From IMG/VR virus record IMGVR_UViG_3300010998_000812: 64,000 bases of DNA. One strand, written 5' to 3'. A model generated the notes under the pieces. The model was not told the DNA's origin and ran no database searches. It saw only the letters and a list, made by a program, of their open reading frames with translations. This DNA is from an uncultured virus (IMG/VR IMGVR_UViG_3300010998_000812). Taxonomy: Duplodnaviria > Heunggongvirae > Uroviricota > Caudoviricetes. Shown here one piece after another: positions 14,957 to 52,508 of the stretch. A program made the position numbers and the translations under genes. The stretch's first letter is position 1; each line of letters starts with the position of its first letter.

Positions 14957-15104
14957 TCTCCCACTTCTATAAGCGTTTACCGGAATACTATGGCAAAATT
15001 AACCTTGGTGAGAGTTAACACCGATATAGATGCCACTTCCTCGGCTACGGATATTATAATCCAGCGCCAAGCTTACGTCACCACAAGGACATCAAGCTGC
15101 CCCG
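14957..15104 (-). ncRNA. Dispersed structured leader motif, minus-strand copy with ~38-nt insert
   Basis: Reverse complement reads CGGGGCAGCTTGATGTCCTTG..GAAGT..AACTCTCACCAAGGTTAAT..ATAGTATTCC..GTGGGAGA, upstream of the PilZ gene. Confidence 0.8.
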
Positions 15105-15227
15105 TAGGTCACATAATCATCTGCGACCATCGTTTATAATAGTATGATTTCTCAGGCAGAAAACCCTCAGCTTATACCTTTCGTACACATTATTTTCTTA
15201 TATGCTTGTCCTTATTTTTCATACCTA

Positions 15228-15387
15228 TTGACATTCACTTCAAAACATGGTATATTATTATCAAGGCAAACGATGACAAAACAGCTTCGTTGCTGAACTT
15301 TCTTTTTACAGGGTAATAGGTTTTGCGACAGATCACACAATCACCTCCAACACACTAACAGCTCTCACCGTGAGGGCTGTTTTGTTT
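15228..15387 (+). ncRNA. Promoter-sRNA-terminator unit 1
   Basis: TTGACA-17-TATATT, ATCACCTCC, terminator AACAGCTCTCA..TGAGGGCTGTTTT. Confidence 0.6.
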
Positions 15388-15440
15388 ATATAGCGACTTG
15401 AGTCTCGTACACACCTTTGAAACAAAATAAAGAAAATATA

Positions 15441-15580
15441 TTGACATTTCGCGTAAAAATGATATAATATAAACAAGGCAGAGTTTATTCGATTGTCTCT
15501 GCTGAAATTTTGTGTCAATATTTTGGGTTTGGCTCCTTTCTAAAGAAACTCCTCGATTACTCCAGCGGGGAGTTTTCTTT
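15441..15580 (+). ncRNA. Promoter-sRNA-terminator unit 2
   Basis: TTGACA-16-TATAAT, 5' hairpin GCAGAG/CTCTGC, CTCCTTTC, terminator. Confidence 0.6.
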
Positions 15581-15618
15581 GGGTCAAGGATGCGGCTTGT
15601 CCTTATTTTCTAAAACTA

Positions 15619-15780
15619 TTGACTCTGAAACAGAACAATGATATAATATATATAAGGTCAAATGACGGCGCTTGACCGAATTTTCTTCTTATTTTTTCTA
15701 ATTTTCTTTATTCTTTTTACCTTCTTTCGCTCATGTCTTTAACCGAAGAAAGGCTCTTCATTCAGGAAGGGTCTTTTTTC
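15619..15780 (+). ncRNA. Promoter-sRNA-terminator unit 3
   Basis: TTGACT-17-TATAAT, hairpin GGTCAA/TTGACC, pyrimidine tract, terminator. Confidence 0.6.
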
Positions 15781-15787
15781 ATTTCAC

Positions 15788-15895
15788 TTGAAATATTTGT
15801 TTTCTTATATTATAATAATAGATGTAAAGATCATATCTTTACAAATTTTCTCTCAACACCGGAAGCCCGCGTAAACAGCGGGTTTCTTCTTTTTT
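15788..15895 (+). ncRNA. Promoter-sRNA-terminator unit 4
   Basis: TTGAAA-17-TATAAT, hairpin TGTAAAGAT/ATCTTTACA, terminator GAAGCCCGC..GCGGGTTTC. Confidence 0.55.
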
Positions 15896-16002
15896 ACGCA
15901 AAACGTCAATATAATATAAACAAAATCCCGCTGATAAAACCTTCATAATTTGTGCAAAACGCAGAATGTTGAGCTTTAAGAAGATAAATTTACTTAAGAT
16001 GC

Positions 16003-16190
16003 TTGACTTTTTCATTTTATATGGTATAATCTGCTTAAGGTGCGAGAATAGAAGATGCTTGCAACCTTTGCTTGAAGGCAATGAAATCGGCTCTTGAAGT
16101 CGGTATGTGTGAGAAAGCATCAAGATATGATGTTCGTTCTTAAGAAGAGGTAAGAAATAGGCTGTGATATCTTTACAGCCTTTTTTCTTT
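16003..16190 (+). ncRNA. Promoter-sRNA-terminator unit 5
   Basis: TTGACT-16-TATAAT, terminator AGGCTGT..ACAGCCTTTTTT. Confidence 0.55.
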
Positions 16191-16341
16191 CTAAAAGCAA
16201 AATATGAGTGATCGTGCTGCGGATGACATCGGGAATTGCACCGAATGCCGGACTTGCGAAGCCCGCTGCCCAATGAGCCCCTGCGGGGGCTCTTTTGTTC
16301 GCCTAAAATGTCGCTCATACACAGAATTGAAAGAAAATCTA

Positions 16342-16466
16342 TTGACATTTTCGCGAAAACATGATACAATACATACATAGAGTTAATCTCAACCTCTTGA
16401 GATCGTCTAACTCAAAAAACATCCAACCAGCGAAAGGGATCACGGCGGCTACCGTGGTCTTTTTTG
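16342..16466 (+). ncRNA. Promoter-sRNA-terminator unit 6
   Basis: TTGACA-17-TACAAT, hairpin ATCTCAA/TTGAGAT, terminator GATCACGG..CCGTGGTCTTTTT. Confidence 0.6.
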
Positions 16467-16583
16467 TTAATACGGAGCAAAATATGATGTGTACAAGAAG
16501 CATAAGTTTACGGTTTTCCTCGCCGTAAATCATACTATTTATGAGACCTCGTAGTGAGGCGAATTTTTAAGGAGGAATAACAA

Positions 16584-17918
16584 ATGAACAACAGAGAGTC
16601 AACCCTGAACATCGTCTGCACCATAGCTTTTCTTATCGGTGTACGGCAGGATACTATTGACCTGCATTACGGCGGTGAATGCGGAGAGCTTATCAAATCT
16701 CTGGAAGGGAATAAGGATGCGGTTAACATCAGAAGCCTTTGCAGACTAAGGACAAGCTTAATGCAGAATTTCAGGAAAACGGACAATGAGCTGCGGTACA
16801 ACATGAACAACATCAACCGGCAGGAATGGTTTCCGCAGGATGCCATCAGAGCACTGGAACGCAACGGCATCTATCCCATCCTCGCCAATAAGCTTGCTAC
16901 CGACTATAATGTATTCTTCGGAAAGAAGATAATCGAACTCATCGACAAGTGCAAGCCTTTGTTCCCAAGTTGGGTGGAATGGAAATACATATTAGCTTTG
17001 TTTGTTCAGCATAAGATCGACGATGTAAATACTCAGAAGAGAGAATTCGAGAAGTATAAGGGTAATATCAATAACTACCCCTTCCAGTGCTATATCATTT
17101 GGGAGCCCTCGGATATCGGCAATTGGCTTCAGAACGATAATAAGTTCCTCGGACACCTTTATAAGATGAATGGTGTGAAGTTCACCGACAGCGATAAGTG
17201 TCAGACTGTAAAGGCAGAGGTAAAGGACGGCATCTACGATTTTATCAATGACAGCGACAATACCGTGCTTGTAGTTGATTGTGAGAACAGTGATGTATTC
17301 AAGCTCTACAGCGTGCTTAAGAGCTGCAACAAAGACGAGATCAATAAGATCAGCAAGATAATGCTCTTTGACGACGAACACACATCAAGCGGATGGGATC
17401 ATATCAGCGATTACATCGATATTCCGGTAGAGCACCTCATGGTAGACAGAGTTATGGACCGCAAATCTCTCGTAGATATCAAGGTAACTGCGGGTGTATG
17501 CAAGGAATTCTATCAGAACGGAACATCCTCGTTTATACTCTTCTCCAGCGACTCTGATTATTGGGGGCTTATATCCTCTCTCCCTGATGCAAAGTTTATG
17601 GTGATGGTCGAAAGCATCAAGTTCGGCAAGGATACCAAGGCGACACTTGAGAAGAATAATGTAAGCTACTGCTGTATAGATGAGTTCTGCACCGGCAATA
17701 TCGAAGAACTGAAGCACTCCATTCTCCTCGAAAAACTCAACGAAGAGCTTCCCAAGCTCATTAACCGTAACGGATATGAACTTGCAAGGTCACTTTACAA
17801 CAGAGCCCACTTTGAGGCAAACGAGAACGAAATCAAGAACTTCTATGAGAAGTATATAAGAACCCTGAAGCTCTCCTTCGACAGCGAAGGCAATATCACG
17901 CTCGTAGCAAGCAAGTAA
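16584..17918 (+). CDS. NYN-domain (PIN-like) protein
   Basis: LVVDCENS..KSLVD..LFSSDSDY acidic motifs. Confidence 0.75.
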   Translation: MNNRESTLNIVCTIAFLIGVRQDTIDLHYGGECGELIKSLEGNKDAVNIRSLCRLRTSLMQNFRKTDNELRYNMNNINRQEWFPQDAIRALERNGIYPILANKLATDYNVFFGKKIIELIDKCKPLFPSWVEWKYILALFVQHKIDDVNTQKREFEKYKGNINNYPFQCYIIWEPSDIGNWLQNDNKFLGHLYKMNGVKFTDSDKCQTVKAEVKDGIYDFINDSDNTVLVVDCENSDVFKLYSVLKSCNKDEINKISKIMLFDDEHTSSGWDHISDYIDIPVEHLMVDRVMDRKSLVDIKVTAGVCKEFYQNGTSSFILFSSDSDYWGLISSLPDAKFMVMVESIKFGKDTKATLEKNNVSYCCIDEFCTGNIEELKHSILLEKLNEELPKLINRNGYELARSLYNRAHFEANENEIKNFYEKYIRTLKLSFDSEGNITLVASK

Positions 17919-18352
17919 CAGTAAAAAGGATACCGGCGGGTGTATCTGCATCCGCCGTATTCCGAAGATGTTTTCACTTAAGGAGATTTTGACCATCAAC
18001 TACATTTTCAGTCAGCCAATATCGAAAAAAGTCGTCAAAAACTAAGGCTTTTTGTTCTAATATTTTTCGTACACATCTATTTTGAAGTGAAAAATCATAA
18101 CAAATGACAGCAGCTCAAAGTGGGATAACAATCATCGACGGTCTTATGACAGCAGTTGACAAAGTGGGCAAATTTAAGAGTTAATACTTAAGGGAAAAAT
18201 ACGAAAAGTCGGATTTTCCTGCATTGATCTTTTTGAAAAAATAAGACTTAAAACAACCACAAACAAGCATTATTAAAGCATTTATTCGACTTAAGATGAA
18301 AACGAAAAGGAAAACTGTAAATTTGTGGGACTATGGAGAGGAGGCAAGAGTT

Positions 18353-18691
18353 ATGGCGTTCGGAACGTATTTGAATGATATGCTTAACAAGAAGGGTATG
18401 TCGCAGAGCGAATTAGCTACTAAAGCAGGGATGAACAAAGCTACCCTAAGTACGATAATAAAGAAGGATACAGATAAGATAAGCATCGGGCTATTTTTCA
18501 AGATATGTGATGCTCTCGAATGCTCACCCATCATATTCAAAAATTATTATAAAATGGACAACCTTGACCCGGATGCTAAAGAATTTCTCCGCTTATATAA
18601 TATGGCAAACGATAAAGGAAAGGATCTAATAGCAGCTCTTGTGATAGGATTATCCGCAAATCCGAAGTACAGAAAGGAAACAAAAGAATGA
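18353..18691 (+). CDS. XRE-family HTH regulator
   Basis: KKGMSQSELATKAGMNKATLSTI..ICDALEC. Confidence 0.85.
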   Translation: MAFGTYLNDMLNKKGMSQSELATKAGMNKATLSTIIKKDTDKISIGLFFKICDALECSPIIFKNYYKMDNLDPDAKEFLRLYNMANDKGKDLIAALVIGLSANPKYRKETKE

Positions 18692-19323
18692 GACAGTTAA
18701 TAATAGTAAGGAAAGACCTTAATATGGGTATAGGGAAGCTTGCGGCTCAGTGCTGCCATGCGAGCAACGCATATTTTATGCACCTGTTTAAAGGAAGAGA
18801 GGAGTGGCTAAGCCGTACTCCGGTCGAGCCTTACGCGGCACACCTTGCAGTTGACGAAGACGGGAAACCCGCCCTTTATAGACTGAATGAACTTTCAGAA
18901 TATGCTCAGAGAGCTGTAAACGAAGGAAAGGTGATATTCTTCACCAAGTTTGTACCCCATGAAGAGGGGAGCAAGTTCGGCAAGCTCGAATGGGCAGACC
19001 CGGAAGAGGTTAAGTTCGTATACAGCGGCAAGGTCATCATTCCATCAGATGTGTATGAGAACTGGGTCAATGATATCTACACAAAAACGGTATGCGAGGC
19101 AAAGACTAAGAACCATCTGCTTAAGGCGGTAGCAGCGGCACAGGAGCTTGGATTGCGGGAAGATGAAGATTTCTTCCTTATCAAGGACAGATGTCTTACC
19201 GAACTTGAGCCTGAAGAAACAGATGAGAACGGTGTGGGATATACGCTGACCTGTATTGGGTTCAAGCCGCTTGAAGATGAAATAGCCCACACCATAAGCA
19301 AGAAATATCAGCTTTTGAAGTGA
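18688..19323 (+). CDS. Peptidyl-tRNA hydrolase, Pth2 family, with a large insertion
   Basis: QLIIVRKDLNMGIGKLAAQCCHAS..IKDRCLTE..TCIGFKP. Confidence 0.8.
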   Translation: MRQLIIVRKDLNMGIGKLAAQCCHASNAYFMHLFKGREEWLSRTPVEPYAAHLAVDEDGKPALYRLNELSEYAQRAVNEGKVIFFTKFVPHEEGSKFGKLEWADPEEVKFVYSGKVIIPSDVYENWVNDIYTKTVCEAKTKNHLLKAVAAAQELGLREDEDFFLIKDRCLTELEPEETDENGVGYTLTCIGFKPLEDEIAHTISKKYQLLK

Positions 19324-19399
19324 TCAGCGTAAAGGCTTTGCTTCGGTATTGAAATTCCACGAAATATATGTTATAATAGTATATACAACAAACATTATT

Positions 19400-19510
19400 C
19401 GGGGCGGCTCGACGCCCTTGTGACGACGAAGTACCTATCAAGTATAGGCAACTCTCGTTAAGGTCAATTCCTGTATAGTATTCCGCAGGACGCTTGCGAA
19501 AGCGCGAGAA
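19400..19510 (+). ncRNA. Dispersed structured leader motif copy
   Basis: CGGGGCGGCTCGACGCCCTTG..GAAGT..AACTCTCGTTAAGGTCAAT..ATAGTATTCC..GCGAGAA, after a TTGAAA-17-TATAAT promoter. Confidence 0.85.
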
Positions 19511-19563
19511 AGTTGATTGGCTTCGACTTATTGCCCTCAAAAAGACACAAAAGGAGAGAGAAT

Positions 19564-20016
19564 ATGCCTAAAAAGAAGAAAATAATGGGAATAATAGACT
19601 GTGAACGCAAAGGAAATGTAGTAAGGTTCACCATCGGAGATGTTACAGAAAACTATAACGGTGACGATTGGGACGACAAATACTATGCTTCCAACGCAGG
19701 TTCTGTTTACTCCGAATACGTGGATCATTATGTCGATATAGCTTTCCCGTTCGACTGCGATGTATTTGAACCGGATGAAGACAATGTATCCCGCGATGAC
19801 ATGAAAGCAAGGTTAGTCCCTTGCCTTGTTGTACTTCCTAATAAGGTCAGGAAGAATAGAGGATACTATTATTATAGCTACAGTTCTCTAATGCAGGCAG
19901 GCGAACCGGTGATAAAGTTTTATTTCGGAGATGTTATCGACGAAGAGAAGCTTAAGACAGAATTTGACGCTCTCACAATGACACAGCGAATCAAAGTAAA
20001 CTACGAGCTGGTGTGA
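19564..20016 (+). CDS. Hypothetical protein
   Basis: RBS AGGAG, F.IG...YNGDDWDD..Y..NAG.VY pattern. Confidence 0.7.
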   Translation: MPKKKKIMGIIDCERKGNVVRFTIGDVTENYNGDDWDDKYYASNAGSVYSEYVDHYVDIAFPFDCDVFEPDEDNVSRDDMKARLVPCLVVLPNKVRKNRGYYYYSYSSLMQAGEPVIKFYFGDVIDEEKLKTEFDALTMTQRIKVNYELV

Positions 20017-20171
20017 TGCAGTCAAACACAAGATATGTACGACAGAGCTGGTTACAACCCTGCTTATTCTGTACACAAATCCTTTTTTACCGGATACCGC
20101 CGTAAAGTCCCTGCCTTTAGGCATGGGGAGTGTCAAAAATGTGCGTATTAGTTGTTGCAAAGGAGAAGCAA

Positions 20172-20480
20172 ATGAGAATGTCATTTTATGAGTTTCCGGA
20201 AGATACGCCTGAAGGAGTGCTTATTGATGAGGAGCTTCCTGTAGTGCTTAAGAATGGACAAACGATATCATCGCAATGGCTTACCGAGGAGAAGAGATCT
20301 CTCATAGACCATTTCGAGAGAGTCACTCAATGTACCATTACTTACGCCAAGAAGATGCTTAAGAAATATGGCGGGAGAGCTTGGACAGAGCATTACGACA
20401 GGGACGGAGGATTGTTCGAGGTCACTCCGATAGAGCTTACCGGAAATAACAGCAGATTCAAATATAATCGGCATCTATAG
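20172..20480 (+). CDS. Hypothetical protein
   Basis: RBS AAGGAG before MRMSFY. Confidence 0.65.
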   Translation: MRMSFYEFPEDTPEGVLIDEELPVVLKNGQTISSQWLTEEKRSLIDHFERVTQCTITYAKKMLKKYGGRAWTEHYDRDGGLFEVTPIELTGNNSRFKYNRHL

Positions 20481-20522
20481 TAAGATTAATCTACACATGG
20501 GAAGGAGGGAACAGGAGTCTGT

Positions 20523-22406
20523 ATGAATATAGAATTTCAATGTGGCGGACTGATACTGCTTGTTATAATAATGTTGTTATTCATAAAGGAAAAGAAATTA
20601 GGAATAACCAACAGTAAACTGTTCTTTTTCGCTCTTATCTCATGTATAGTCTGCGAAGTGTTTGATATAGCCTCGATCATAGCGATACACGAGGCTGTGT
20701 ATAACGGCTTTTCTGACATCATCACCAAGATCACTTGTAAGCTGTACCTATGCTCCCTTGTCTTGCAGGGATATCAAGGCTTTCTGTACGCTTCCTCAGA
20801 GGCGCTATACGCCAAAAGGAACAAGCGCACAAAGATTTTTTGCTTGATATTCTTTATTTTGGGTGAAATTGCCATCTTAACGAATGAAATATCATACTAT
20901 ATGGATGGCAGAACGGTCTATTCATACGGACCGTCTACCAAAATAACCTACGCTATAGCCGTAGTGTTCATAACCTTAACTATCTGGACAGCTTTCAAAT
21001 ACAGGGAAGGATTGATGAAGAGAAGACGCAATGCCATGCTTATATGGCAAGGTTGTTGGCTTCTTGCGGCAATCGTGCAGTTTATATTTCCTCAACTGTT
21101 ACTTGTAGGTTTTGCAGCCGCAGTGGGAATGGTAATACTTTACGCAGAGCTTGAGAACCCAAATGAATTTACCGACCGGGGGACAGGGTTGTTCACTCCG
21201 AATGCTATGAAGATGTTCGTGAAAGATATGTTTCTTCGCGAAAAGAAATTTTCAGCTATATTTTTCAAAGCTAAGTTTGTGTACGAGACAGCGGAATATG
21301 AGATAGAACAGGCTGTGACCCAGAGAATAGTAAAAGCAATAGGCAGGCTCGGAGAAGAACCAGCATTCAAGCTTGATGACAACCTATATGCAATCATATA
21401 CGAAGACGAGAAAGAACTGCAAAAGAAGTTCGAAATACTCAAAAAGATGGCTGACAGCGTAACAGATGTAAAAGCCGATGGTATGTATATCCTTATACCG
21501 GACAGCAGCGTATTTGAAAGCTACGAGGAGTTCTTCTTATTTCAAAGATATTACGAAGACGCTGGTCCGGGCATTATAACCGTTGACGAAGCAACGATAG
21601 AAAAGATAAGAAAACGTGAAAACACAAGGATATTCATTGACAATGCGTTGAGAGATGATAGGGTACAGGTATTCTATCAGCCGTTCTTTGACACTAAAAA
21701 GGGTTATTACACTGTTGCGGAGGCTCTTGTCCGCGTATTTGATGAAAACGGTAGGATCGTTCCTCCTATGGAGATAATCCCGATAGCGGAAGAAAACGGA
21801 CAGATAATGCCTCTCGGAATACGGATATTCGAAAAAGTCTGCGAGTTCCTTGAAAAGGGAGAAGCTCAGAAACTTGGTATTGAATACATCGAGGTCAACA
21901 TCTCAGCGGCTCAGTTTGATCACGAAAACCCTTATCTGTTTGTTACAGAGATTATGAGGAAACATAACATCAAGGCTGAATGGATCAACCTTGAGATTAC
22001 CGAAACAGCTTCAAATGACTTAAAACACGTTTTACTTCTCAATATGAATAAACTCATATCCGAAGGTATAGAATTCTCACTTGACGACTTCGGTACAGGC
22101 AGGTCTAATCTGGACTACTTTGTGAATATGCCTGTGAAGAACATCAAATTTGATTACAGCTTTACTCAAGGGTTCTTTACGAATGATAAGATAAAGCAGG
22201 TAATGACGGGTATGACAGACATCTTACATAACATGAATATGCATATCGTATCAGAGGGGATAGAGACCAAAGAACAGATGGATGCGATGATAGACTTGAA
22301 TATAGAATACATACAAGGCTATTATTTATCGAAGCCTATTAACGAAATCGAATTCATAGAATTCCTTAAAGAAAAGAACAAGGAATATGTTGGTTCATAC
22401 ATATAG
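20523..22406 (+). CDS. Membrane-anchored EAL-domain c-di-GMP phosphodiesterase with degenerate GGDEF
   Basis: About 7 N-terminal transmembrane segments, DRGTGL..FKLDDNLY (degenerate GGDEF), YQP..AEALVR..VNIS..LEITE..SLDDFGTG..IKFD..SEGIET..IQGY. Confidence 0.9.
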   Translation: MNIEFQCGGLILLVIIMLLFIKEKKLGITNSKLFFFALISCIVCEVFDIASIIAIHEAVYNGFSDIITKITCKLYLCSLVLQGYQGFLYASSEALYAKRNKRTKIFCLIFFILGEIAILTNEISYYMDGRTVYSYGPSTKITYAIAVVFITLTIWTAFKYREGLMKRRRNAMLIWQGCWLLAAIVQFIFPQLLLVGFAAAVGMVILYAELENPNEFTDRGTGLFTPNAMKMFVKDMFLREKKFSAIFFKAKFVYETAEYEIEQAVTQRIVKAIGRLGEEPAFKLDDNLYAIIYEDEKELQKKFEILKKMADSVTDVKADGMYILIPDSSVFESYEEFFLFQRYYEDAGPGIITVDEATIEKIRKRENTRIFIDNALRDDRVQVFYQPFFDTKKGYYTVAEALVRVFDENGRIVPPMEIIPIAEENGQIMPLGIRIFEKVCEFLEKGEAQKLGIEYIEVNISAAQFDHENPYLFVTEIMRKHNIKAEWINLEITETASNDLKHVLLLNMNKLISEGIEFSLDDFGTGRSNLDYFVNMPVKNIKFDYSFTQGFFTNDKIKQVMTGMTDILHNMNMHIVSEGIETKEQMDAMIDLNIEYIQGYYLSKPINEIEFIEFLKEKNKEYVGSYI

Positions 22407-22420
22407 AAAAACGTTATTTG

Positions 22421-22532
22421 CGGGGCGGCTCGACGTCCTTGTAACGATGAAGCAGCATCTATAACGGTGTTAACTCTCGTTAAGGTTAATTCTGCCATAG
22501 TATTCCGGCAGACACTTATTGAAGCGCGAGAA
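22421..22532 (+). ncRNA. Dispersed structured leader motif copy
   Basis: Same conserved blocks, starting 14 nt after the EAL stop codon. Confidence 0.85.
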
Positions 22533-22592
22533 GCCGGAGAAGATCAGGAAACAACATTAACATTTTTATTAAAACAGAAAGGAATAAAAGTA

Positions 22593-22793
22593 ATGAATAT
22601 AGCTATTTCAAGAAAAGAAGACAAATACTTCAAAAGAGGCGAAAGATACGAGATACTTCGTATGTATGACAATATGCTCGATCTCAATGTTGTTGGGATT
22701 GACAAGCCTGTAACTGTGCCTTTGGATGATGATGATTTCCTTGTGGCTTTCAATGTCAGAGAAGACGATGCATTGGTCATAGGAGATAAGTGA
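22593..22793 (+). CDS. Small hypothetical protein (tandem duplicate A)
   Basis: MNIAI...GERYEILRMYD, with RBS context identical to the next gene. Confidence 0.65.
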   Translation: MNIAISRKEDKYFKRGERYEILRMYDNMLDLNVVGIDKPVTVPLDDDDFLVAFNVREDDALVIGDK

Positions 22794-22834
22794 ACTTATT
22801 CGACAAAAACATGGAACAGAAAGGAATAAAAGTA

Positions 22835-23182
22835 ATGAATATCGCTATTGCAAGGACGACAAATACGAAACTGGGCTACGAAAAAGGGGAGAGATATGAG
22901 ATACTGCGTATGTATGACGGTAAACTCGACCTCTACTTGGATGACAAGACAATAACAGTTCCGGCGGACGGCAAGGAGTTCGAGATCATAATGAACGGCT
23001 CCGGGGACTATTATTATATAAGAAAAGAGAAAGTAGATCCTGATACACAGGCGGAAAATGACACCGAGCGCGAGCTGCTTCATTTCTTCCGGCTGCTGAA
23101 CAGGAGGGAAAGATTTGAAGCTTCTGAGCATATCAAGCGTATGGTGAATACAAGAAGAGCTTGTGATGCTGAGTTCAAGTAA
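22835..23182 (+). CDS. Hypothetical protein (tandem duplicate B, C-terminal extension)
   Basis: MNIAI...GERYEILRMYD. Confidence 0.65.
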   Translation: MNIAIARTTNTKLGYEKGERYEILRMYDGKLDLYLDDKTITVPADGKEFEIIMNGSGDYYYIRKEKVDPDTQAENDTERELLHFFRLLNRRERFEASEHIKRMVNTRRACDAEFK

Positions 23183-23202
23183 TTCAAGGGGAGTGATAAG
23201 CC

Positions 23203-23502
23203 GTGAATATCGAAATGTCGGCGGACAAGAAAAACGTAACGGTACACCTTACAGGCGAGGTCGATGCTCTTAACGCCCCGGATATAGAGGAAAAGATAAT
23301 AGAAAAGATACCTGTAGCGGAAGAAATCATTATAGACGCAGCAGGGCTTGAGTACATATCGTCTTCAGGACTGAGAATACTGTTGGTAGCTCAGAAGGCA
23401 ATGAAAAATAAGGGCGGTCATATGGTTATAAAACATGTAAATGAAGATGTAATGGATGTGTTTAACGTCACAGGCTTCGCAAAGCTGTTAGATATAGCTT
23501 AA
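23203..23502 (+). CDS. STAS-domain anti-sigma-factor antagonist
   Basis: LTGEVDA..LEYISSSGLRILL..VFNVTGF. Confidence 0.9.
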   Translation: MNIEMSADKKNVTVHLTGEVDALNAPDIEEKIIEKIPVAEEIIIDAAGLEYISSSGLRILLVAQKAMKNKGGHMVIKHVNEDVMDVFNVTGFAKLLDIA

Positions 23503-23512
23503 GTATACAATT

Positions 23513-23655
23513 CGGGGTGGCTCCGGCTACAGGCAGAGCCTGATGTCAGCTTCGCGACGCCCTTGTGACGATGAAGTACCTATCAAGTATAAGCAACTCT
23601 TGTTAAAGTCAATTCCTGTATAGTATTCCACGGGACACTTATGATAGTGCGAGAA
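23513..23655 (+). ncRNA. Dispersed structured leader motif copy with ~32-nt insert in the GCTCGA loop
   Basis: Conserved blocks plus insert CCGGCTACAGGCAGAGCCTGATGTCAGCTTCG. Confidence 0.8.
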
Positions 23656-23683
23656 AAACGAGGAGTTCGCAATGAGGATAAAA

Positions 23684-23945
23684 TTCAACTACCCACCACT
23701 AAAGTAGCGGGATTGTGAAACAATCGAGTTGAATAGCCTAAGTGAAGAGCTAAAAGCTCTGAACTACGTTAAGAGAGAATGTATAGTTACCTACGGATGT
23801 AGTACCAAGTCTGTAGCTCTAAGGTCAATGATTAAACAGCTTTTCGGGGAAGAAGCAGTGTTGTTGACAAGAAACCTCTCATTAACATTGGCGATGGTAC
23901 ACTAACGGTAAGATATACACCGGCTTAATGCGTAAAGTATATCAA
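23684..23945 (+). ncRNA. omegaRNA (HEARO-type) scaffold of IscB
   Basis: TCAACTACCC..CTAAAG..GGG, GTTGAATAGCCTAAG, CTACGTT, CCAAGTC..GCTCT, AACATTGGCGATGG, immediately upstream of iscB. Confidence 0.85.
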
Positions 23946-23969
23946 TCTTAAGAGAAGGAGAGCCTTTCA

Positions 23970-25253
23970 ATGGTATATGTGTTAAACAAGAACGGGCAGC
24001 CGCTTATGCCTACTGAAAGGCACGGTAAAGTAAGGAGACTGCTTAAGTCTAAGAAGGCTATAGTAGTCAAGAGATGTCCGTTCACTATACAGCTACAATA
24101 TGAATGTGGCAATGTAACACACCCTATTACTTTAGGCGTGGATGCAGGGAGCAAACATATAGGTCTATCTGCGGCTACAGAGAATAAAGAGCTTTATGCA
24201 GCAGAAGTGGAGCTTCGTAACGACATTGTTAAACTCTTATCTGCGAAACGAGAGCTTCGCATATCTCGTAGGAACAGAAAGACTCGATATCGCAAGGCAA
24301 GATTTAATAATCGGGTGAGTGCTAAGCGAGACGGGTGGTTAGCTCCTTCGTTGCAGCACAAGGTTGATACACATCTTAAGGTGATAGCGGATTTACATAA
24401 AATACTGCCTATCACAAAGATAGTGGTTGAAGTAGCTGCTTTCGATATTCAAAAAATCAAGAACCCTGATATACAGGGGACTGAGTATAAACAAGGTGAA
24501 CAGTTAGGGTTTTGGAACGTCAGAGAGTATGTGCTGTTCAGAGATGGACATCAATGCCAGTGCTGTAAGGGCAAATCTAAGGATACAATACTCAATGTGC
24601 ATCACATAGAGAGCAGGCAGACCGGAGGAGATGCACCCAACAATTTGATTACGCTATGCGAAACATGTCATACCGGGTATCATAAGGGTACTGTCAAGCT
24701 CCCTAAAACCATAAAGCGAGGCATGAGGTTCAAGGATGCTGCATTTATGGGTATAATGAGATGGGCTTTCTTTGAAGAGCTTAAGCGTACATACCCGGAT
24801 GCAAGACTTACGTATGGGTATATTACAAAACATACGAGGATATCGAATGGCTTAAGTAAAACTAAGACTGTTGATGCTCGCTGTATTAGTGGCAATCCTA
24901 TGGCTACTCCCTTAGATACTGTATACTATCTTAAGAAGGTACGGTGTCATAATAGACAGATACATAAATGCACTATTAACAAAGGCAGCATTCGCAAGCG
25001 TAATCGAGCACCATACGATGTTAATGGCTTCAGACTCTTTGATAAAGTAAGATACCAAGGTGCCGAACGCTTTATCTACGGAAGAAGGTCATCCGGGTAC
25101 TTTGATATCAGAGGGCTTGACGGTACAAAGATTTCTTCAAGTGTAAGCTACAAAATGCTAACATTATTGGAGACAAGAAAAAACATTCTAATAGAAAGGC
25201 ACTTGACTGATGAAAAACGAAACCAATCAAAAATCTCCTGCCTTTGCCACTAA
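23970..25253 (+). CDS. iscB: RNA-guided endonuclease IscB (IS200/IS605 OMEGA)
   Basis: PLMP domain (GQPLMPT), RuvC-I LGVDAG, Arg-rich bridge helix, RuvC-II VVE, HNH (CQCC..HHI..NLITLCETCH), RuvC-III VDARCI. Confidence 0.95.
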   Translation: MVYVLNKNGQPLMPTERHGKVRRLLKSKKAIVVKRCPFTIQLQYECGNVTHPITLGVDAGSKHIGLSAATENKELYAAEVELRNDIVKLLSAKRELRISRRNRKTRYRKARFNNRVSAKRDGWLAPSLQHKVDTHLKVIADLHKILPITKIVVEVAAFDIQKIKNPDIQGTEYKQGEQLGFWNVREYVLFRDGHQCQCCKGKSKDTILNVHHIESRQTGGDAPNNLITLCETCHTGYHKGTVKLPKTIKRGMRFKDAAFMGIMRWAFFEELKRTYPDARLTYGYITKHTRISNGLSKTKTVDARCISGNPMATPLDTVYYLKKVRCHNRQIHKCTINKGSIRKRNRAPYDVNGFRLFDKVRYQGAERFIYGRRSSGYFDIRGLDGTKISSSVSYKMLTLLETRKNILIERHLTDEKRNQSKISCLCH

Positions 25254-25635
25254 TATAAAACGCTTAAGGATATCTCGTAATCTGACGCAGCTCGAATTGG
25301 CAAAAATTGCTGGAGTATCAGATAAAGCGGTATCGACTTGGGAAAGCGGACGTAAAATGCCGAGAATTCAAGTGCTAAGCAAGCTGTGTGATTATTTTGG
25401 CGTAAGCCTTGGAGAATTGTTCGAAGAAGAAGAAAAACGGACAGACGAGCCGGTATCCAAAAAAGAAAAAGAACTTCTTAAATGGTTCAGACGCCTATCC
25501 GATAAAGAGCAAGATGTTATTTTTTACCTGACAAAGAAGGCAGGAATGACTATAGAGGAGCTTTTGGAGGAACAGGAATGCCAAGAAGAGGAGAAGAAAC
25601 GCTCTGATTACAAAGAAGAAAAGAAAGATGATTGA
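25210..25635 (+). CDS. XRE-family HTH regulator
   Basis: IKRLRISRNLTQLELAKIAGVSDKAVSTWESG..P. Confidence 0.9.
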   Translation: MKNETNQKSPAFATNIKRLRISRNLTQLELAKIAGVSDKAVSTWESGRKMPRIQVLSKLCDYFGVSLGELFEEEEKRTDEPVSKKEKELLKWFRRLSDKEQDVIFYLTKKAGMTIEELLEEQECQEEEKKRSDYKEEKKDD

Positions 25636-25638
25636 ACT

Positions 25639-26406
25639 ATGAAAAACAAGGATTTCGAGAACATATATATTACAGGCGATACACACGCTGATTTCAAAGA
25701 CCTCATACGGCAGGCACAAAGGTTTGATTTCACCGAGCGGGACCTTCTTATCATTCTCGGCGATGTGGGTATAAATTACTTCGGTGACTTAAGGGACGAT
25801 AAGAACAAGAAGACGCTTGAAGCTGTACCTTGCACTATTCTTTGTATTCACGGGAACCACGAGATGCGTCCGACAAGCCCCGAAATAGCGGAGAAATATA
25901 AGAAAATCGAATGGCAGGGAGATACGGCGTATGTAGAAGATAACTATCCTCGCTTCATTATGGCTGAAGATGGTTCAAGATACCACATCAACGAGAGAGA
26001 TTTCCTTGTTATAGGCGGAGCATATTCCGTCGATAAGCTGTACCGCTTGGAATATGGATACAGGTGGTTCAAGGATGAGCAGCTTACTGAGGATGAAAAG
26101 GATAGCATCAGAAAGAAAGTAGAAAAACACGGGAATAAAGAAGATGTCATACTCGCACACACCTGCCCGTATAACAACAGACCGGTGGAATGTTTCCTGA
26201 AGGATGTAAACCAATCCACGGTAGACAACTCTATGGAGCATTTCTTGCAGGAGATAGTCGATAAGATCGAATACAACGCCTTATACTGCGGACATTGGCA
26301 CACAGAGAAGCAAGATGGAAAGGTTCGTATAATGTTCCATGATATCATTGTTCTGGGGGAGCCCAAGAAGGACGAGGAGATGTTTTCAGGAAGACTCTGC
26401 TCGTAA
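25639..26406 (+). CDS. Calcineurin-like metallophosphoesterase
   Basis: GDTH, LGD, GNHE, HTCP and GHWH motifs. Confidence 0.9.
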   Translation: MKNKDFENIYITGDTHADFKDLIRQAQRFDFTERDLLIILGDVGINYFGDLRDDKNKKTLEAVPCTILCIHGNHEMRPTSPEIAEKYKKIEWQGDTAYVEDNYPRFIMAEDGSRYHINERDFLVIGGAYSVDKLYRLEYGYRWFKDEQLTEDEKDSIRKKVEKHGNKEDVILAHTCPYNNRPVECFLKDVNQSTVDNSMEHFLQEIVDKIEYNALYCGHWHTEKQDGKVRIMFHDIIVLGEPKKDEEMFSGRLCS

Positions 26407-26479
26407 AATATCTGTGTACAGCAAACAAGACTTTTTGATTTTCCTTCCGAGAAGTCATACTATTAACAAATAAATAATT

Positions 26480-26590
26480 CGGGGCAGCTCGATGCCCTTG
26501 TGACGATGAAGTGCCTATCAAGTATAGGTAACTCTCGTTAAGGTTAATCCTCCCATAGTATTCCGAGAGGCGCTCATTGAAGTGCGAGAA
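26480..26590 (+). ncRNA. Dispersed structured leader motif copy
   Basis: Conserved blocks, about 18 nt after a CATACTA promoter box. Confidence 0.85.
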
Positions 26591-26705
26591 CGCCGAACTC
26601 CGCCTTCTTCTTAGCGGTCAATCGCATACAGCGATGATACATACGCGATATATATGCATTATCACTCATAAAAGAAAGATATTTTTGGGAAAGAGAAGAA
26701 CAAAT

Positions 26706-26990
26706 ATGTACAAATTATACGAATACGCAGACGGAGACACGAAAATCGGACTTATAATGTCCGACAAAGAACAGTGCCTATACATAGGTAATAAGCTTTA
26801 CTCAGCAAAAACGAATGTTACCCCTGAGAAGCAAAGCCTTGACAGCGATATTACCGGGCGTGGGCTTGTAAAGATTGAACTTGAGCCCCTCAGAGTAACT
26901 ATCGCCGGAAAAGAGGTAAAGCCTACCTACGAGCATGAAGAGCCGGACAAAGCTTCCATTCTTCAGCACTGGAACTCAAGACTTAAGTAA
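26706..26990 (+). CDS. Hypothetical protein
   Basis: ORF starting MYKLYEY between two motif copies. Confidence 0.55.
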   Translation: MYKLYEYADGDTKIGLIMSDKEQCLYIGNKLYSAKTNVTPEKQSLDSDITGRGLVKIELEPLRVTIAGKEVKPTYEHEEPDKASILQHWNSRLK

Positions 26991-27016
26991 AACGGAAAGA
27001 CTTTCCATAGATATAT

Positions 27017-27126
27017 CGGGGCGGCTCGACGTCCTTGTGGCGATGAAGTGCTTGTTTAATATAAGTAACTCTCGTTAAGGTTAATCCCTGTATAGTATTC
27101 CACAGGGCACTTATGAAGCGCGAGAA
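27017..27126 (+). ncRNA. Dispersed structured leader motif copy (no clear downstream ORF)
   Basis: Conserved blocks, with the 3' AAGTGCGAGAA repeated again at ~27145. Confidence 0.85.
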
Positions 27127-27231
27127 GGGGGGATGACACGCAAGAAGTGCGAGAACGAGGGCATTGATACCCCCAATTTTAACGCACGCCTTGCTGTCAA
27201 GAAGGCTGTGTACGAGCCTTAAAATAGGGTA

Positions 27232-27492
27232 TTGCAATTTTTGCAATTTCATGATACAATGTGATTACAGTAAAGAAAAGAGATAACCACATAATCAAAT
27301 GTTTTCATAAATATTCCTTTCACAACAATATCATGCATATCCCGTCAGAGAAAGAGTGGGACAGGACGGCAATAAATCTGGGAACACCGTCCAAAGTGTG
27401 ATATTGTACCTAAAGACGATACACCGGATATTCATAATAATCCTTTCATAATAAAGAGGGCTCCTCGGATAACGATCCGGGGAGTTTTCTTT
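27232..27492 (+). ncRNA. Promoter-sRNA-terminator unit with two anti-RBS/anti-AUG boxes
   Basis: TTGCAA-17-TACAAT, TTCATAAATATTCCTTTCA and TTCATAATAATCCTTTCA flanking a multi-stem core, terminator CTCCTCGGA..TCCGGGGAGTTTT. Confidence 0.6.
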
Positions 27493-27732: not shown

Positions 27733-27844
27733 CGGGGCAGCTCGATGTCCTTGTGGCGACGAAGTGGCATCTATAACGATGTTAACTCTCGTTAAGGTTA
27801 ATCCCACAATAGTATTCCTGTGGGCACTTGTAGGAGTGCGAGAA
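27733..27844 (+). ncRNA. Dispersed structured leader motif copy
   Basis: Conserved blocks after a CATACTA promoter. Confidence 0.85.
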
Positions 27845-49489: not shown

Positions 49490-49499
49490 GGGAATATTC

Positions 49500-50426
49500 A
49501 TGAGGAAAAGATATATTACAGCGGCACTTTTATGCTGTTCGTTAATCCTTGGTTCCTGTGATACCAAACCCCGGAAAGACGCAGATGTACTATCAGAATA
49601 TATAGAGACTACCTCAACTGCATCAACATCAACGGCGCCGGAAGCTCAAACAAGTACGGAAACGAGCATAGAAACCGAAGAGGAAACAAACATTATGTCG
49701 GAGACCAATACAGTTCCGAATGATGATAATATACGGAAGGAGATAGAAGGGGCTGTAAAAGAAGCAATGGAAGCCAATACAGCGATGAGAAAGGCTTACA
49801 AAGAGTCTGATACGTTAACAGACGAAGAGGTAGCCAAGAAGGTTTACGAGGCGTTTGATCTCAAAACGTATTACTATTTCTCTACCGGTAAGATAAGCGA
49901 CTGGAAAACAACGATAAAGCATTTCGAGAGCAGTGGAGCCTTGAAAAGGTCTGCGGTCACGCAATCATCCGAGGATGATGGGACAACGGATCCTACCGAT
50001 ACCAAATGGAAATTGATAGATTCTGGCTCCATAACGGACGAAAAGTATATAGATATGTATAATATGCTTTATGGAATCGACGAGGAACTGAAGTTCTTAA
50101 GTGATGCTATTCCTTCATTTGATGCAGTCAGCAGAGTTGTAGGCATTGAAGATGTATGGTGCTGCAATGTCAATGTCTGTACAAAAGCCACTGAAGAGGG
50201 TATCAGATTATTTGAGGAAACAGATCCTGAAATAATATCCGAATACACATCTACAAGAGGAATATACCTTTCCGATGATGGATATTTCGTATCTCCTATG
50301 TCTATGTTTGTATTCTACAGGGACGGCAAATGGAGAGTATGCATGGGGTATACTTCGTTGTATCGAATGACAGACCTTTATAAAAGAGGTGTTATAGATA
50401 GTATAGCAGGATTATCCGGCAGATAG
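49500..50426 (+). CDS. Lipoprotein, hypothetical
   Basis: MRKRYITAALLCCSLILGSC lipobox, Thr/Ser/Glu-rich linker. Confidence 0.75.
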   Translation: MRKRYITAALLCCSLILGSCDTKPRKDADVLSEYIETTSTASTSTAPEAQTSTETSIETEEETNIMSETNTVPNDDNIRKEIEGAVKEAMEANTAMRKAYKESDTLTDEEVAKKVYEAFDLKTYYYFSTGKISDWKTTIKHFESSGALKRSAVTQSSEDDGTTDPTDTKWKLIDSGSITDEKYIDMYNMLYGIDEELKFLSDAIPSFDAVSRVVGIEDVWCCNVNVCTKATEEGIRLFEETDPEIISEYTSTRGIYLSDDGYFVSPMSMFVFYRDGKWRVCMGYTSLYRMTDLYKRGVIDSIAGLSGR

Positions 50427-50551
50427 TAAAAACGAAGGCAGGAGCGACTTAAGTCTTCTGCCTTTTATTTGTGTAGAAAAAACAATAGTTTTCGATTTTC
50501 TTTTCGTTCAATCATACTATTATTAAATGGTCATAGATAGTTCGTGACCTA

Positions 50552-50662
50552 CGGGGCAGCTCGATGTCCTTGGGACGATGAAGTGCTTATCCGGCATAAG
50601 CAACTCTCGTTAAGGTTAATCCCACAATAGTATTCCTGTGGGCACTTGTGGTAGTGTGAGAA
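50552..50662 (+). ncRNA. Dispersed structured leader motif copy
   Basis: Conserved blocks, plus an extra 5' GGTCA/TGACC hairpin like that of the minus-strand copy. Confidence 0.85.
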
Positions 50663-50710
50663 AAATGAGAAAAATGAAAAAAATATAAATAAAGAAAAGA
50701 AGTGAGTTTT

Positions 50711-51823
50711 ATGACCAAAGAAGTACAAGATCAAAAATCGTTTTATACAAAACAAAGTGCTGAGATTGTAGAATATATCACGGATATAGTTAACAGCCGA
50801 CTCGACTTATATGAGGTTGAACACTCCTTATTCTTTTCAAAGCCAGATAAACTTGGAAGAATAGACAGCTTTACCATTCTTATCGGAAATTCAAAGGTCA
50901 ACCTGTGTGAGCCAATGTTCTTCAGTGGCACTATAAGCATCAGGGATATACAGGACACCACTCCACACAGAGAAGATGCAAACAGATATATAGCCGAAGA
51001 AGCTGTAAGGGCTGCAATGATGAATATAAGCAGGACTATTAGATATGGTGCTCGTACACAGACAGAACGTGAAACGTTGGAAATCGCATACCTTGCCCTT
51101 GACAATGTTACCGGTGAGATGTATGACAGCCTTGAAGAAATAACCCTTAAGAGTGTAAAACTCGCTCTTTTGCATGGACTGATAACATTTGAAGAGAAAA
51201 AGTATGAACTCACCTTCAGTGATGTATGGGGGTACGAAAAAGTAGAGCTTATCCCTGATTATAAAAGAAAGAGTGTATATTATTGGCATTATACGGAGGA
51301 CGAACTTGCGGAACTGATATACAAGCGTCTGTGCGAAATTAAGAGCAATAGGCTTGAGAGACATATATACGACAGTTTCAGATATATTTTCTCTCTTTTC
51401 GGCTGCGGAATGCAGGAATATCCCACATCATTCCTTATGGAAGATCAGAGACAAGAGATGCAGAAACTGAAAGAGTATCTGATAAAAAAAGGATACAGAG
51501 TGTATATGACCGAAGAACAGATCAGGTGTGTATCAATACCTAATCTTAACCTGTGCATAACGGCATATAAGAAGGACGGCGGCGCCTGCAATATAGGCAT
51601 ACTCCATATTGAGATGGATTCCATAGAAGGAATTTGTCGAAGAATGGTATTTAAAGCAAAGAACCTGTATGAGCATAGACCGACGCAAGAGGCGAAAGAG
51701 GCGGCGTACGAAGTATATAAAGATATATCACAGTACTACAGCCCACGCACAATCGCACCTGAGCCGGTGTACGCCAAATATGTATACAGGGCTCTTGTGC
51801 AAAACAAGAAAATGCGAAAGTAA
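50711..51823 (+). CDS. Hypothetical protein
   Basis: 370-aa ORF after a motif copy. Confidence 0.65.
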   Translation: MTKEVQDQKSFYTKQSAEIVEYITDIVNSRLDLYEVEHSLFFSKPDKLGRIDSFTILIGNSKVNLCEPMFFSGTISIRDIQDTTPHREDANRYIAEEAVRAAMMNISRTIRYGARTQTERETLEIAYLALDNVTGEMYDSLEEITLKSVKLALLHGLITFEEKKYELTFSDVWGYEKVELIPDYKRKSVYYWHYTEDELAELIYKRLCEIKSNRLERHIYDSFRYIFSLFGCGMQEYPTSFLMEDQRQEMQKLKEYLIKKGYRVYMTEEQIRCVSIPNLNLCITAYKKDGGACNIGILHIEMDSIEGICRRMVFKAKNLYEHRPTQEAKEAAYEVYKDISQYYSPRTIAPEPVYAKYVYRALVQNKKMRK

Positions 51824-51841
51824 AAAGAAAGGAAAAATATT

Positions 51842-52243
51842 ATGGCAGCTTTACCTAACCTTCCGTTGATACAGGAGCGGTTCTATAACAAAATCAAAGG
51901 AGAACTTGAAGAAAGGGATATAAAATACCCCGAATTTGAGGTGTTAGGTGTATTCCTACAGTTTTGGGGCAGTACGGCACTCGGTTTTGGCGGGATAGGC
52001 GGAGCCGCTGTAACGTCTGCGTATACAACCGTTATTGAGAACAATAAGCTCGGATATGTAGGAGTTTTCTTCGGAGAAAGACTCGCATACATCATATATC
52101 AGCCGAACGATAAGTTCCGGGAAGACCTCAAGGCTCGCTGTATGGTGGATGTTATGTCACACAGCAAGTATGAAAAATCTGCGGTAGAGCCTCCTCCGAG
52201 AAGTTATAAGCCGATGGAAGCCTTTGAAGACGAGATAGATTAA
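51842..52243 (+). CDS. Hypothetical protein (phage-like)
   Basis: FLQFWGSTALGFGGIGGAAVTSAYTTV..VFFG.RLAY. Confidence 0.7.
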   Translation: MAALPNLPLIQERFYNKIKGELEERDIKYPEFEVLGVFLQFWGSTALGFGGIGGAAVTSAYTTVIENNKLGYVGVFFGERLAYIIYQPNDKFREDLKARCMVDVMSHSKYEKSAVEPPPRSYKPMEAFEDEID

Positions 52244-52397
52244 GAAAAGATGTGATAATATTATAACGAAGGGGCAATCAGTTTGCGTGGTACACATCTT
52301 TCAGTAAACAAGGAAATTGAGCGAATAATTTGTGTACAAACGACAACAGTTTGTAGTTTTCCTTCCGAGAAGTCATACTAATGACAGATAAATAATT

Positions 52398-52508
52398 CAG
52401 GGCAGCTCGATGTCCTTGGGACGATGAAGTACCTATCAAGCATAGGCAACTCTCGTTAAGGTTAATTCACACATAGTATGCCGTGTGACGCTCTTTGAAG
52501 TGCGAGAG
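52398..52508 (+). ncRNA. Dispersed structured leader motif copy
   Basis: Conserved blocks after a CATACTA promoter. Confidence 0.85.

Follow-up and report, generated by a model that had tools for sequence, protein, structure and literature searches.

What kind of element recurs ahead of otherwise unrelated genes in the genome of an uncultured tailed phage? The question is raised by IMG/VR record IMGVR_UViG_3300010998_000812 (Duplodnaviria; Caudoviricetes), a stretch of 64,000 nucleotides that is referred to here, at its full length, as the window. A first-pass annotation of the sequence had picked out, between positions 14,957 and 52,508, eleven dispersed copies of an unrecognised structured motif and had suggested that they constitute a cis-acting RNA device serving the whole element. 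The eleven copies are one new family of structured RNA module, about 113 nt in length, and what unites them is a strand-specific, strongly constrained fold that stands at the heads of transcripts and at the borders between cistrons.

Detection and fold of the module

A covariance model, R1, was built from the eight insertion-free copies on a five-helix structure drawn by hand (113 positions, 27 pairs) and searched against both strands of the whole window at E<=10. It returned eleven matches, exactly the copies previously listed, at the same starts and on the same strands, and no others. Copies are named here by their starts, the single one on the minus strand as 15104(-); eight of them (26480, 32098, 19400, 50552, 52398, 27017, 27733 and 22421) score between 124 and 132 bits. 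The 15-mer core of the motif, allowing up to 3 mismatches, occurs 12 times against an expectation of 1.78, a count that none of 100 shuffles attains, and 11 of the 12 occurrences fall inside copies. The remaining occurrence, at 46484(-), is not confirmed by R1.

In the base numbering of copy 19400, P1 pairs 4-7 with 14-17 beneath an invariant loop of 6 nt, L1 (GCUCGA). P2 consists of 18-20 with 61-63 and 23-27 with 56-60, with a 2-nt bulge between the two segments, and encloses P3 (35-39 with 45-49) across a conserved internal loop, the whole P2-P3 arm stacking to only about 14-18 bp. Between P2 and P4 (70-75 with 86-91) is a conserved linker of 6 nt; P4 bears the invariant loop L4, of 10 nt, and P5 (92-95 with 102-105) follows directly and is succeeded by the 3' tail CGAGA. 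Approximately 45 unpaired bases of the module are near-invariant. Three of the eleven copies carry extra parts, namely 32 nt within L1 of copy 23513 and a hairpin, P2a, after the 5' strand of P2 in copies 30596 and 15104(-), and in the upper stem of P2a these last two copies covary.

The initial account had described stems that covary around nearly fixed loops and junctions, and the alignments bear this out. With the eleven copies aligned to R1, standard pairs occupy 97.9% of 290 cells and both sides change in 17 of the 27 pairs; no shuffle in 500 matches either value, for pairing or for compensated pairs, and sliding the 3' partners by 1-3 columns leaves 32-48% paired. Because that alignment was fitted to the model, the count was repeated on a structure-blind MAFFT alignment of eight copies, in which 98.8% of cells are paired and 12 of 31 pairs are compensated, with 29-50% in the slid controls. 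The mean pairwise difference in the 8-copy alignment reaches 0.57 in the stem of P4, 0.52 in the loop of P5 and 0.45 in P3, as opposed to 0.00 in L1 and the outer part of P2, 0.04 in the P2-P4 linker, 0.05 in L4 and 0.10 in the P3-P2 junction.

G-U pairs are tolerated, as had been proposed, with 21 G-U or U-G cells and only 3 A-C or C-A cells in the 8-copy alignment. The complementary strand would consequently bear many mismatches, and for this reason only the gene-sense strand folds. The sense orientation claimed for every copy likewise holds, all eleven being co-directional with their downstream genes. Single-sequence folding recovers P1-P5 in most copies with weak z-scores (-2.1 to +0.6), and the antisense strand folds about equally well in such predictions; given these weak scores, the case for the fold and for its strand is based on covariation and on the G-U counts and not on energy.

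An alternative pairing of the 3' CGAGA, put forward at first reading as a switch or pseudoknot, is feasible. The tail has two competing partners, the CUCG of the P1 loop and the CUC of the junction, and as neither pairing varies among the copies, neither covaries and neither is demonstrated. Read by eye, the 3' CGAG with the CUCG of L1 would give 4 bp and fits ten of the eleven copies, with one G-U in 50552, one end mismatch in 15104(-) and an interruption by the insert in 23513.

Placement at promoters and stop codons

The copies had been described as lying just after a promoter or just after an upstream stop codon, and the distances agree: six of the eleven begin 16-34 nt past promoter-like sites and five begin 8-26 nt past stop codons. 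Copy 19400 is 22 nt downstream of a consensus sigma-70-like promoter, TTGAAA-17-TATAAT (19349-19377; 11/12). Copies 26480, 27733 and 52398 are each 16 nt past a phage-specific TCATACTAWT box (promoter-like site TCATACTATT at the first two and TCATACTAAT at 52398), and copies 50552 and 15104(-) are 31 and 34 nt past the same box, with the site reading TCATACTATT at both and a small extra 5' hairpin between box and module. The other five follow the stop codon of an EAL gene by 14 nt (22421), of a STAS gene by 10 nt (23513), of a 137-aa open reading frame (ORF) by 26 nt (27017), of an HD_4 gene by 8 nt (30596) and of a 423-aa ORF by 12 nt (32098). The TCATACTAWT box occurs at 17 sites in the window, where 0.5 would be expected, and the module accompanies no more than 5 of these 17, which shows that promoter and module can occur apart.

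Examples of the box are found at 16530, 40372, 42956, 49023, 54189, 57203 and 61270 and, on the minus strand, at 38137, 42878 and 48946. It often has TGTGTAC about 45 nt upstream, and at several core genes a short GACGAAYGGAGA leader comes after it. Together, TCATACTAWT and TGTGTAC are probably the phage's own promoter class and the site of its activator.

The description of the copies as lying 5' of genes is correct for most of them and fails for 27017 and 32098, which have another promoter-like site before the next ORF. The next feature after each of these two is a second promoter class, TTGCAA-17-TACAAT, with GCTGTGTACGAG preceding it, and because this promoter intervenes the two copies sit at the 3' end of the upstream message and not in a leader. 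The gene at 26577-26990 has one copy at each end. Between the module and the next start codon lie about 31 to about 157 nt of unrelated sequence with no common downstream structure. On the upstream side, conservation begins abruptly at base 1, after flanks that are unrelated to one another and A/U-rich.

Within 14200-34100 no terminator-like site follows any copy on its own strand. The only terminator-like sites on the plus strand between 19400 and 34100 are at 19807, 21716 and 31830, all of them within ORFs, and the gene run from 19.4 to 34.2 kb is co-directional without a predicted intrinsic terminator between its genes.

Known classes considered

That the motif belongs to no known RNA family was at first a judgement by eye, and it is upheld by Rfam 15, none of whose 4227 models (hammerhead, twister, twister-sister, pistol, hatchet, HDV, c-di-GMP-I/II, ydaO, SAM and T-box included) matches the copies at gathering score or at E<=10. 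The sole match in the window at gathering score is HEARO, at 23684-23906. Permissive Rfam scans of 26400-27950, which holds three copies, and of 19390-19525 and 14940-15115 gave only noise (E 0.73-9.8). A part of the HEARO/IscB omega RNA was rejected as an identity for the module, since HEARO lies 27 nt beyond copy 23513 and the block is missing where relatives keep the copy. ARAGORN, run for tRNA-like or tmRNA-like elements, predicts 0 genes in the window.

Coding explanations fare no better. Stops in all three sense frames of nine of the eleven copies reject sense coding. Antisense frames are open across several copies; antisense coding was rejected on the grounds that these frames are out of register between copies, with peptides that diverge after a short common stretch, the copies being in different antisense frames because P3 differs by 1 nt in length. 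Readings of the module by eye as a K-turn, loop E or tetraloop-receptor do not appear to fit. As to a partner in trans, the window has no complement of L4, of the J3/2 junction or of the P2-P4 linker outside the copies, and complements of J2/3 and L1 are confined to single or chance-level short matches.

Two classes of mobile DNA were also rejected. The first-pass annotation had named target-site duplication and orientation-independent insertion as signs of a miniature inverted-repeat transposable element (MITE); reading the flanks of all eleven copies revealed none of the signs of such an element, the ends CGGGGC.../...CGAGAA not being inverted repeats, the flanks containing no target-site duplication and all eleven copies being in gene sense. 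An integron attC site is at odds with the branched five-helix fold, with the unpaired 5' and 3' ends and with the lack of an integron integrase. As for the RNA device proposed originally, the module is indeed structured, strand-specific, gene-sense and covarying, but a classical riboswitch is disfavoured, as copies within 14200-34100 are followed by no terminator and there is no expression platform that would sequester a ribosome-binding site at a fixed distance. The fold and its pattern of conservation would be compatible with an aptamer.

Relatives and cassette exchange

The stretch 19300-29200 is present in 20 DNA sequencing runs from 9 studies of gut, bovine gut and sheep gut metagenomes, one of which may be the source itself. 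Contigs from four runs of four studies (X2, X3, X4 and X6) were compared with the window over 14800-34500. As these are metagenome contigs at >=80% likeness, the joints that they display are good leads and not proof of single genomes. The relatives' contigs end at motif copies, as they would at repeats. None of the four runs has the 32-nt L1 insert of copy 23513 (joint 23522->23555). X3 and X6 lack the IscB/HEARO element inserted next to that copy in the source strain, a block of about 23685-25209, and in them the motif copy adjoins the HTH gene. The P2a hairpin is gone from the 30596 copy in X6, and in X3 a 34-nt insert in the 27733 copy is P2a. Larger exchanges are seen as well: a contig of X6 runs from 27769 to 30616 and then from 33047 to 34491, 2.4 kb being replaced by about 150 other bases, and in X4 the end of the 423-aa gene (32096) runs into a copy like 23513, beyond which the contig continues at 33047. 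The few base differences listed inside copies fall in loops or bulges or preserve pairing, as with A->G at 23630, which turns U-A into U-G. In these sequences cassettes are exchanged between strains with their break points at the copies, an aspect that is absent from the earlier account.

Outside these relatives the module was sought widely. The core pattern has no match in IMG/VR in either its strict or its loose version, and the 3'-half pattern has none there either; one IMG/VR match to the 5'-half pattern is a GC-rich coding region with 15.2 bits and was put down to chance. Two loose-pattern loci in GTDB genome contigs were not confirmed by R1 (best 7.7 bits, E 1.6), and the single JGI metagenome locus of the pattern scan is on the same contig as one of them. 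A blastn query with a single copy gave no match among GenBank phages or PLSDB plasmids, and nor did megablast of 19000-34500 among GenBank phages. Around relatives of the nucleotidyltransferase encoded behind copy 27733 (52-65% identity), 80 IMG/VR loci comprising 1.55 Mb hold no R1 match at E<=1, five whole records from among them hold none at E<=10, and three of the loci are without an analogous dispersed repeat. As far as the collections scanned show, the module would be confined to one phage lineage of ruminant guts. Among the papers listed by a full-text search of the literature with the L4 and core strings there were only unrelated primer matches, and the main text of one survey of structured RNAs in phages has none of six terms for repeats or ribozymes (PMC10690425); the motif may nevertheless have been listed earlier under another name.

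Possible functions of the module

The explanation that we favour, tentatively, is that of an autonomous RNA-processing or insulating module for plug-in cassettes, cut by itself or by a nuclease. The module would be transcribed within mRNAs, independently of the distance to the downstream gene, where it would mark and process transcript boundaries through cleavage by the RNA itself or by a dedicated nuclease, and each plug-in gene cassette would thereby be uncoupled and stabilised. As a side effect the near-identical cores would serve as points of homologous recombination at which cassettes could be gained, lost and swapped between strains. This explanation is preferred because the distribution of the copies, at promoters, at stop codons and at both ends of one gene, equals that of the RNase III sites of phage T7. 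Promoters of two classes, stop codons and a variable distance to the start codon are all features of placement in the manner of processing sites, and the module is itself modular, with the P2a hairpin and the P1-loop insert coming and going at the same sites between strains.

Several considerations weigh against a processing or insulating role. RNase III sites are simple hairpins, and the present fold is far more elaborate than known nuclease sites; some 45 near-invariant unpaired bases are more typical of ribozymes, of aptamers or of RNAs with specific protein or RNA partners. The predicted transcript start is only about 9 nt from P1 in three copies, and with so short a 5' stretch the module would not shield a primary 5' end unless cleavage occurred. 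Genes of nucleotide signalling downstream (PilZ, EAL, HD and RelA/SpoT-like HD_4) would suit a sensor too. All of the evidence comes from one phage lineage, and the eleven copies are paralogues that exchange segments, which makes the invariance of the loops less independent than it appears. None of the 23 runs listed is an RNA run; transcription, cleavage, stabilisation and the acting enzyme, if there is one, are what we infer.

Because the invariant unpaired bases exceed what a nuclease site would need, three rivals stay alive. The module may be a binding platform for a phage or host RNA-binding regulator that times the co-regulation of accessory genes, either by antitermination, as with lambda N/nut, HK022 put or EAR RNA, or through translation or decay, as with T4 RegA/RegB; we regard this as somewhat unlikely. 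The same invariant loops and junctions in eleven leaders of unrelated genes speak for such a platform, although the start-codon distance is too variable for direct translational repression. The copies stand behind two promoter classes and between cistrons, where elements of the nut, put and EAR type act, in a co-directional run of genes without intervening predicted terminators, yet with no terminators predicted an antiterminator has nothing obvious to act on. HTH regulators and a weak candidate for an NYN-type RNase are encoded nearby, but no partner was identified, the NYN match being below the Pfam cut-off and without a relative in the Protein Data Bank (PDB), and the window contains no complementary trans-RNA.

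A new class of self-cleaving ribozyme, cutting at or near the 5' border and leaving the downstream message with a folded 5'-OH end, is distinctly unlikely in our estimate. The sharp start of conservation at base 1 after unrelated A/U-rich flanks would fit such a border, though no cleavage site is pinpointed; the complex fold with its many invariant unpaired bases could be closed as a whole by the L1:3' tail pseudoknot of 4 bp, which does not covary; and many copies in one mobile genome, at any distance to a gene and with optional peripheral hairpins, would be in keeping with a ribozyme, but no Rfam 15 ribozyme family matches. Quite improbable is a riboswitch-like sensor of a signalling nucleotide (cyclic di-GMP (c-di-GMP), (p)ppGpp, a cyclic oligonucleotide or the like) that would switch signalling or anti-defence genes. 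The architecture is aptamer-like, and the purine-rich GAAG (29-32) and GAGA (107-110) could compete for the junction CUCU, but no c-di-GMP-I/II, ydaO, ykkC or other Rfam riboswitch model matches, and no expression platform is evident: there is no terminator, and the ribosome-binding site is 25-150 nt away without shared pairing. The downstream PilZ protein, EAL phosphodiesterase, HD and HD_4 hydrolases, nucleotidyltransferase, metallophosphoesterase and STAS protein would be plausible targets, against which it must be said that most downstream genes are of no known function and that after two of the copies the same transcript contains no further gene. That the module is either of these, a new catalytic or sensing RNA class comprising a 5'-border self-cleaver or an aptamer for a signalling or immune nucleotide, is possible if doubtful. 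Were it a sensor, the phage would tune PilZ, EAL, HD-type signalling and counter-defence genes through it, and either way a catalytic or sensing class would be built into plug-in gene cassettes exchanged by phages.

Very improbable, finally, is an element that acts at the level of DNA only, as a recombination module, dispersed repeat or single-strand DNA signal, with a fold that is incidental or formed in DNA. The contigs of relatives break at and join across copies with differing gene content, but homologous recombination requires no fold, and the stems are kept by compensation while diverging to 0.57 per site, a divergence that counts against a role in recombination because it lowers the available homology. 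An orphan piece of the motif at 27142-27157 and a weak tyrosine-recombinase-like ORF at 10331-11257 would be of a kind with such an element; that ORF matches a SAM-like domain only, the ends of the module are unpaired, unlike those of attC, and there are neither inverted termini nor target duplications. Features that fit RNA are G-U pairs tolerated on one strand only, an orientation that is always sense and a placement confined to intergenic sequence.

The individual copies and the genes behind them

Copy 15104(-), which occupies 14954-15104 (R1 85.5 bits) and has the optional P2a hairpin, heads an operon starting with a PilZ-domain gene. The plus-strand copies begin with 19400 (19400-19512; 130.8 bits), which leads two ORFs of unassigned function and a 627-aa EAL-domain gene. 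Copy 22421 (22421-22534; 123.7 bits) leads two paralogous small ORFs and a STAS gene, anti-sigma antagonist-like; the two small ORFs, at 22467-23182 (+), are in tandem and have repeated 5' regions (families D14, D16 and D19). Copy 23513 (23513-23657; 97.8 bits), with its 32-nt insert in the P1 loop, is followed in the source strain by the IscB/HEARO insertion and then by the HTH gene. The insertion comprises a HEARO omega RNA (133.9 bits) and a 427-aa IscB with RRXRR and HNH domains at 23684-25253 (+), and the block has come to lie, directly after the copy, between the ribosome-binding site and the ATG (25210) of the HTH gene.

Copy 26480 (26480-26592; 131.9 bits) is the leader of the 137-aa ORF, and copy 27017 (27017-27128; 124.5 bits) comes after that ORF and is itself followed by an orphan 3' fragment of the motif and another promoter-like site, with no ORF. 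The fragment, at 27142-27157 (+), resembles about the last 16 nt of the motif (the 3' strand of P5 and the tail) as read from the sequence, and is probably a scar of recombination between copies. Also between copies 27017 and 27733 is a promoter-like TTGCAA-17-TACAAT (27232-27260), after which about 220 nt contain only an ORF of 22-46 aa; a hairpin with a U-tract near 27455-27495 closes this short unit, 27267-27495 (+), a possible gene for a small RNA or micro-protein.

Copy 27733 (27733-27846; 124.5 bits) stands before an operon of a 163-aa ORF, an HD protein, an RlaP-type nucleotidyltransferase and an HD_4 protein resembling RelA/SpoT hydrolases. Copy 30596 (30596-30742; 72.2 bits), the other bearer of P2a, leads the 423-aa ORF. 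After copy 32098 (32098-32210; 131 bits) come the promoter-like TTGCAA-17-TACAAT at 32283-32311 and a 244-aa ORF that is absent in some relatives. Further along the window, copy 50552 (50552-50664; 128.4 bits) leads ORFs of 373 and 133 aa, and copy 52398 (52398-52510; 126.9 bits) leads a run of small ORFs from 52571.

The phage and other features of the window

The gene content suggests a large Firmicute-type phage or phage-plasmid, of which the window would be the accessory region. Encoded there are HNH endonucleases, a ParM-like partition protein, Dam and N6 methylases and members of many PHROG families, and the best named phage relative of the nucleotidyltransferase is in a 130-kb Clostridioides phage (41% identity). 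The domains recognised in genes downstream of copies are PilZ, EAL, STAS, HTH, metallophosphoesterase, HD, RlaP-type nucleotidyltransferase, RelA/SpoT-like HD_4 and N6 methylase, and the remaining downstream genes are mostly without known function. The NYN-type RNase candidate at 16584-17918 scores 22.2 bits, below the Pfam cut-off of 24.2, and has no PDB relative. The weak tyrosine-recombinase-like ORF (10331-11257) matches the N-terminal SAM-like domain alone, is likewise without a PDB relative and lies inside an operon headed by a motif copy.

The divergent region beside the motif cluster, 15200-16400 (+), has six strong sigma-70-like promoters with hexamers at 15228, 15441, 15619, 15788, 16003 and 16342 (11-12/12). 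The first five are each followed within 45-130 nt by a terminator-like hairpin (15357, 15559, 15745, 15861 and 16159), and a sixth hairpin, at 16275, is upstream of the 16342 promoter and not behind it. A GCTTGTCCTT...TATTGAC repeat is found at three of the promoters. The region has the appearance of a series of very small transcription units, perhaps for small RNAs or micro-ORFs.

Elsewhere in the window, the gene for the anaerobic ribonucleotide reductase NrdD is in two pieces, 57281-57961 and 58876-60417 (+), which flank an ORF for an HNH endonuclease (58147-58650), and the interruption looks like an intron or other intervening element with a homing endonuclease. A YafQ-type toxin domain of a type II toxin-antitoxin pair is encoded at 9238-9606 (-), E 1.5e-32.

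Significance and comparison with known systems

Large phages keep their fast-changing accessory genes in hyperplastic regions, and to our knowledge the expression of such genes as interchangeable units is little understood beyond T4. Here one elaborate fold is attached to at least nine accessory units, with its 45 or so unpaired bases almost fixed while the stems have been rewritten, and the signature of fixed loops and compensating stems has previously led to new ribozymes and riboswitches. Its known distribution, one phage lineage in ruminant guts, is narrow. If the fold processes or stabilises messages, it would be a portable "expression adaptor" for phage cassettes and a possible genetic insulator; if it is self-cleaving or binds a nucleotide, it would be a new RNA class with eleven natural variants for biochemistry.

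Among systems already described, several share one or another feature of the module. Phage T7 (R0.3 to R18.5) and Bacillus phage SP82, in its early RNA, have RNase III sites that are single irregular hairpins; a site of the T7 type comprises about two turns of double-stranded RNA with an internal loop. In about ten similar sense copies, placed behind promoters or directly after stop codons at any distance to the gene, these sites parallel the present copies, six of which stand behind promoters and five between cistrons; the module differs from them in its five helices, its many near-invariant unpaired bases and a possible pseudoknot. The cis-acting RNAs of processive antitermination, HK022 put and the EAR RNA of the Bacillus eps operon, are folded and measure about 70-120 nt; they too are found behind promoters or between cistrons, and their target is the polymerase during transcription, at whatever distance. 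Unlike them, the module has no Rfam match, no predicted downstream terminators and eleven copies rather than one or two. The SAS of Cluster K mycobacteriophages is reportedly a 13-nt sequence beside start codons, and SAS and ESAS resemble the module as phage-specific sense motifs of obscure function before many unrelated genes; the module alone has a multi-helix fold and covariation.

In attC, one imperfect hairpin, the two ends RYYYAAC and GTTRRRY pair with each other, and the site adjoins an intI integrase and attI. Co-oriented structured repeats after stop codons (five of the eleven copies), structure kept over stem sequence and variable cassettes are points of likeness, but the ends of the module are unpaired, its fold is branched, its loops are invariant, six of its copies are behind promoters and no integron integrase accompanies it. 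With the riboswitches and ribozymes of Rfam it shares a compact multi-helix fold, conserved junctions, a possible pseudoknot and, downstream of some copies, genes of c-di-GMP or alarmone signalling, yet it matches no model and has no expression platform.

The closest known systems are, in behaviour, the PeSL cassettes of T4-type phages and, in placement, the T7 and SP82 processing sites; in anatomy the module matches neither. PeSL cassettes consist of a sigma-70 promoter and one terminator stem-loop (PMC2839356, PMC4122927), and like the module they are small, conserved, promoter-linked cassettes dispersed in hyperplastic accessory regions of a large phage. They are also points of homologous exchange at which close relatives differ by whole genes between copies, and relatives from the four runs and four studies have their break points of cassette exchange at the copies of the module. 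The early promoter and terminator stem-loop of PeSL have no full counterpart here, a promoter-like site being present at only six of the eleven copies and a hairpin with a U-tract, on the copy's own strand, at none. Unlike PeSL, the module folds into five helices over about 113 nt and has invariant loops; it is without a U-tract and without sequence relation to PeSL, and it is separable from the promoter, five of its eleven copies being without one. We regard the element as a phage regulatory cassette that bears a structured RNA.

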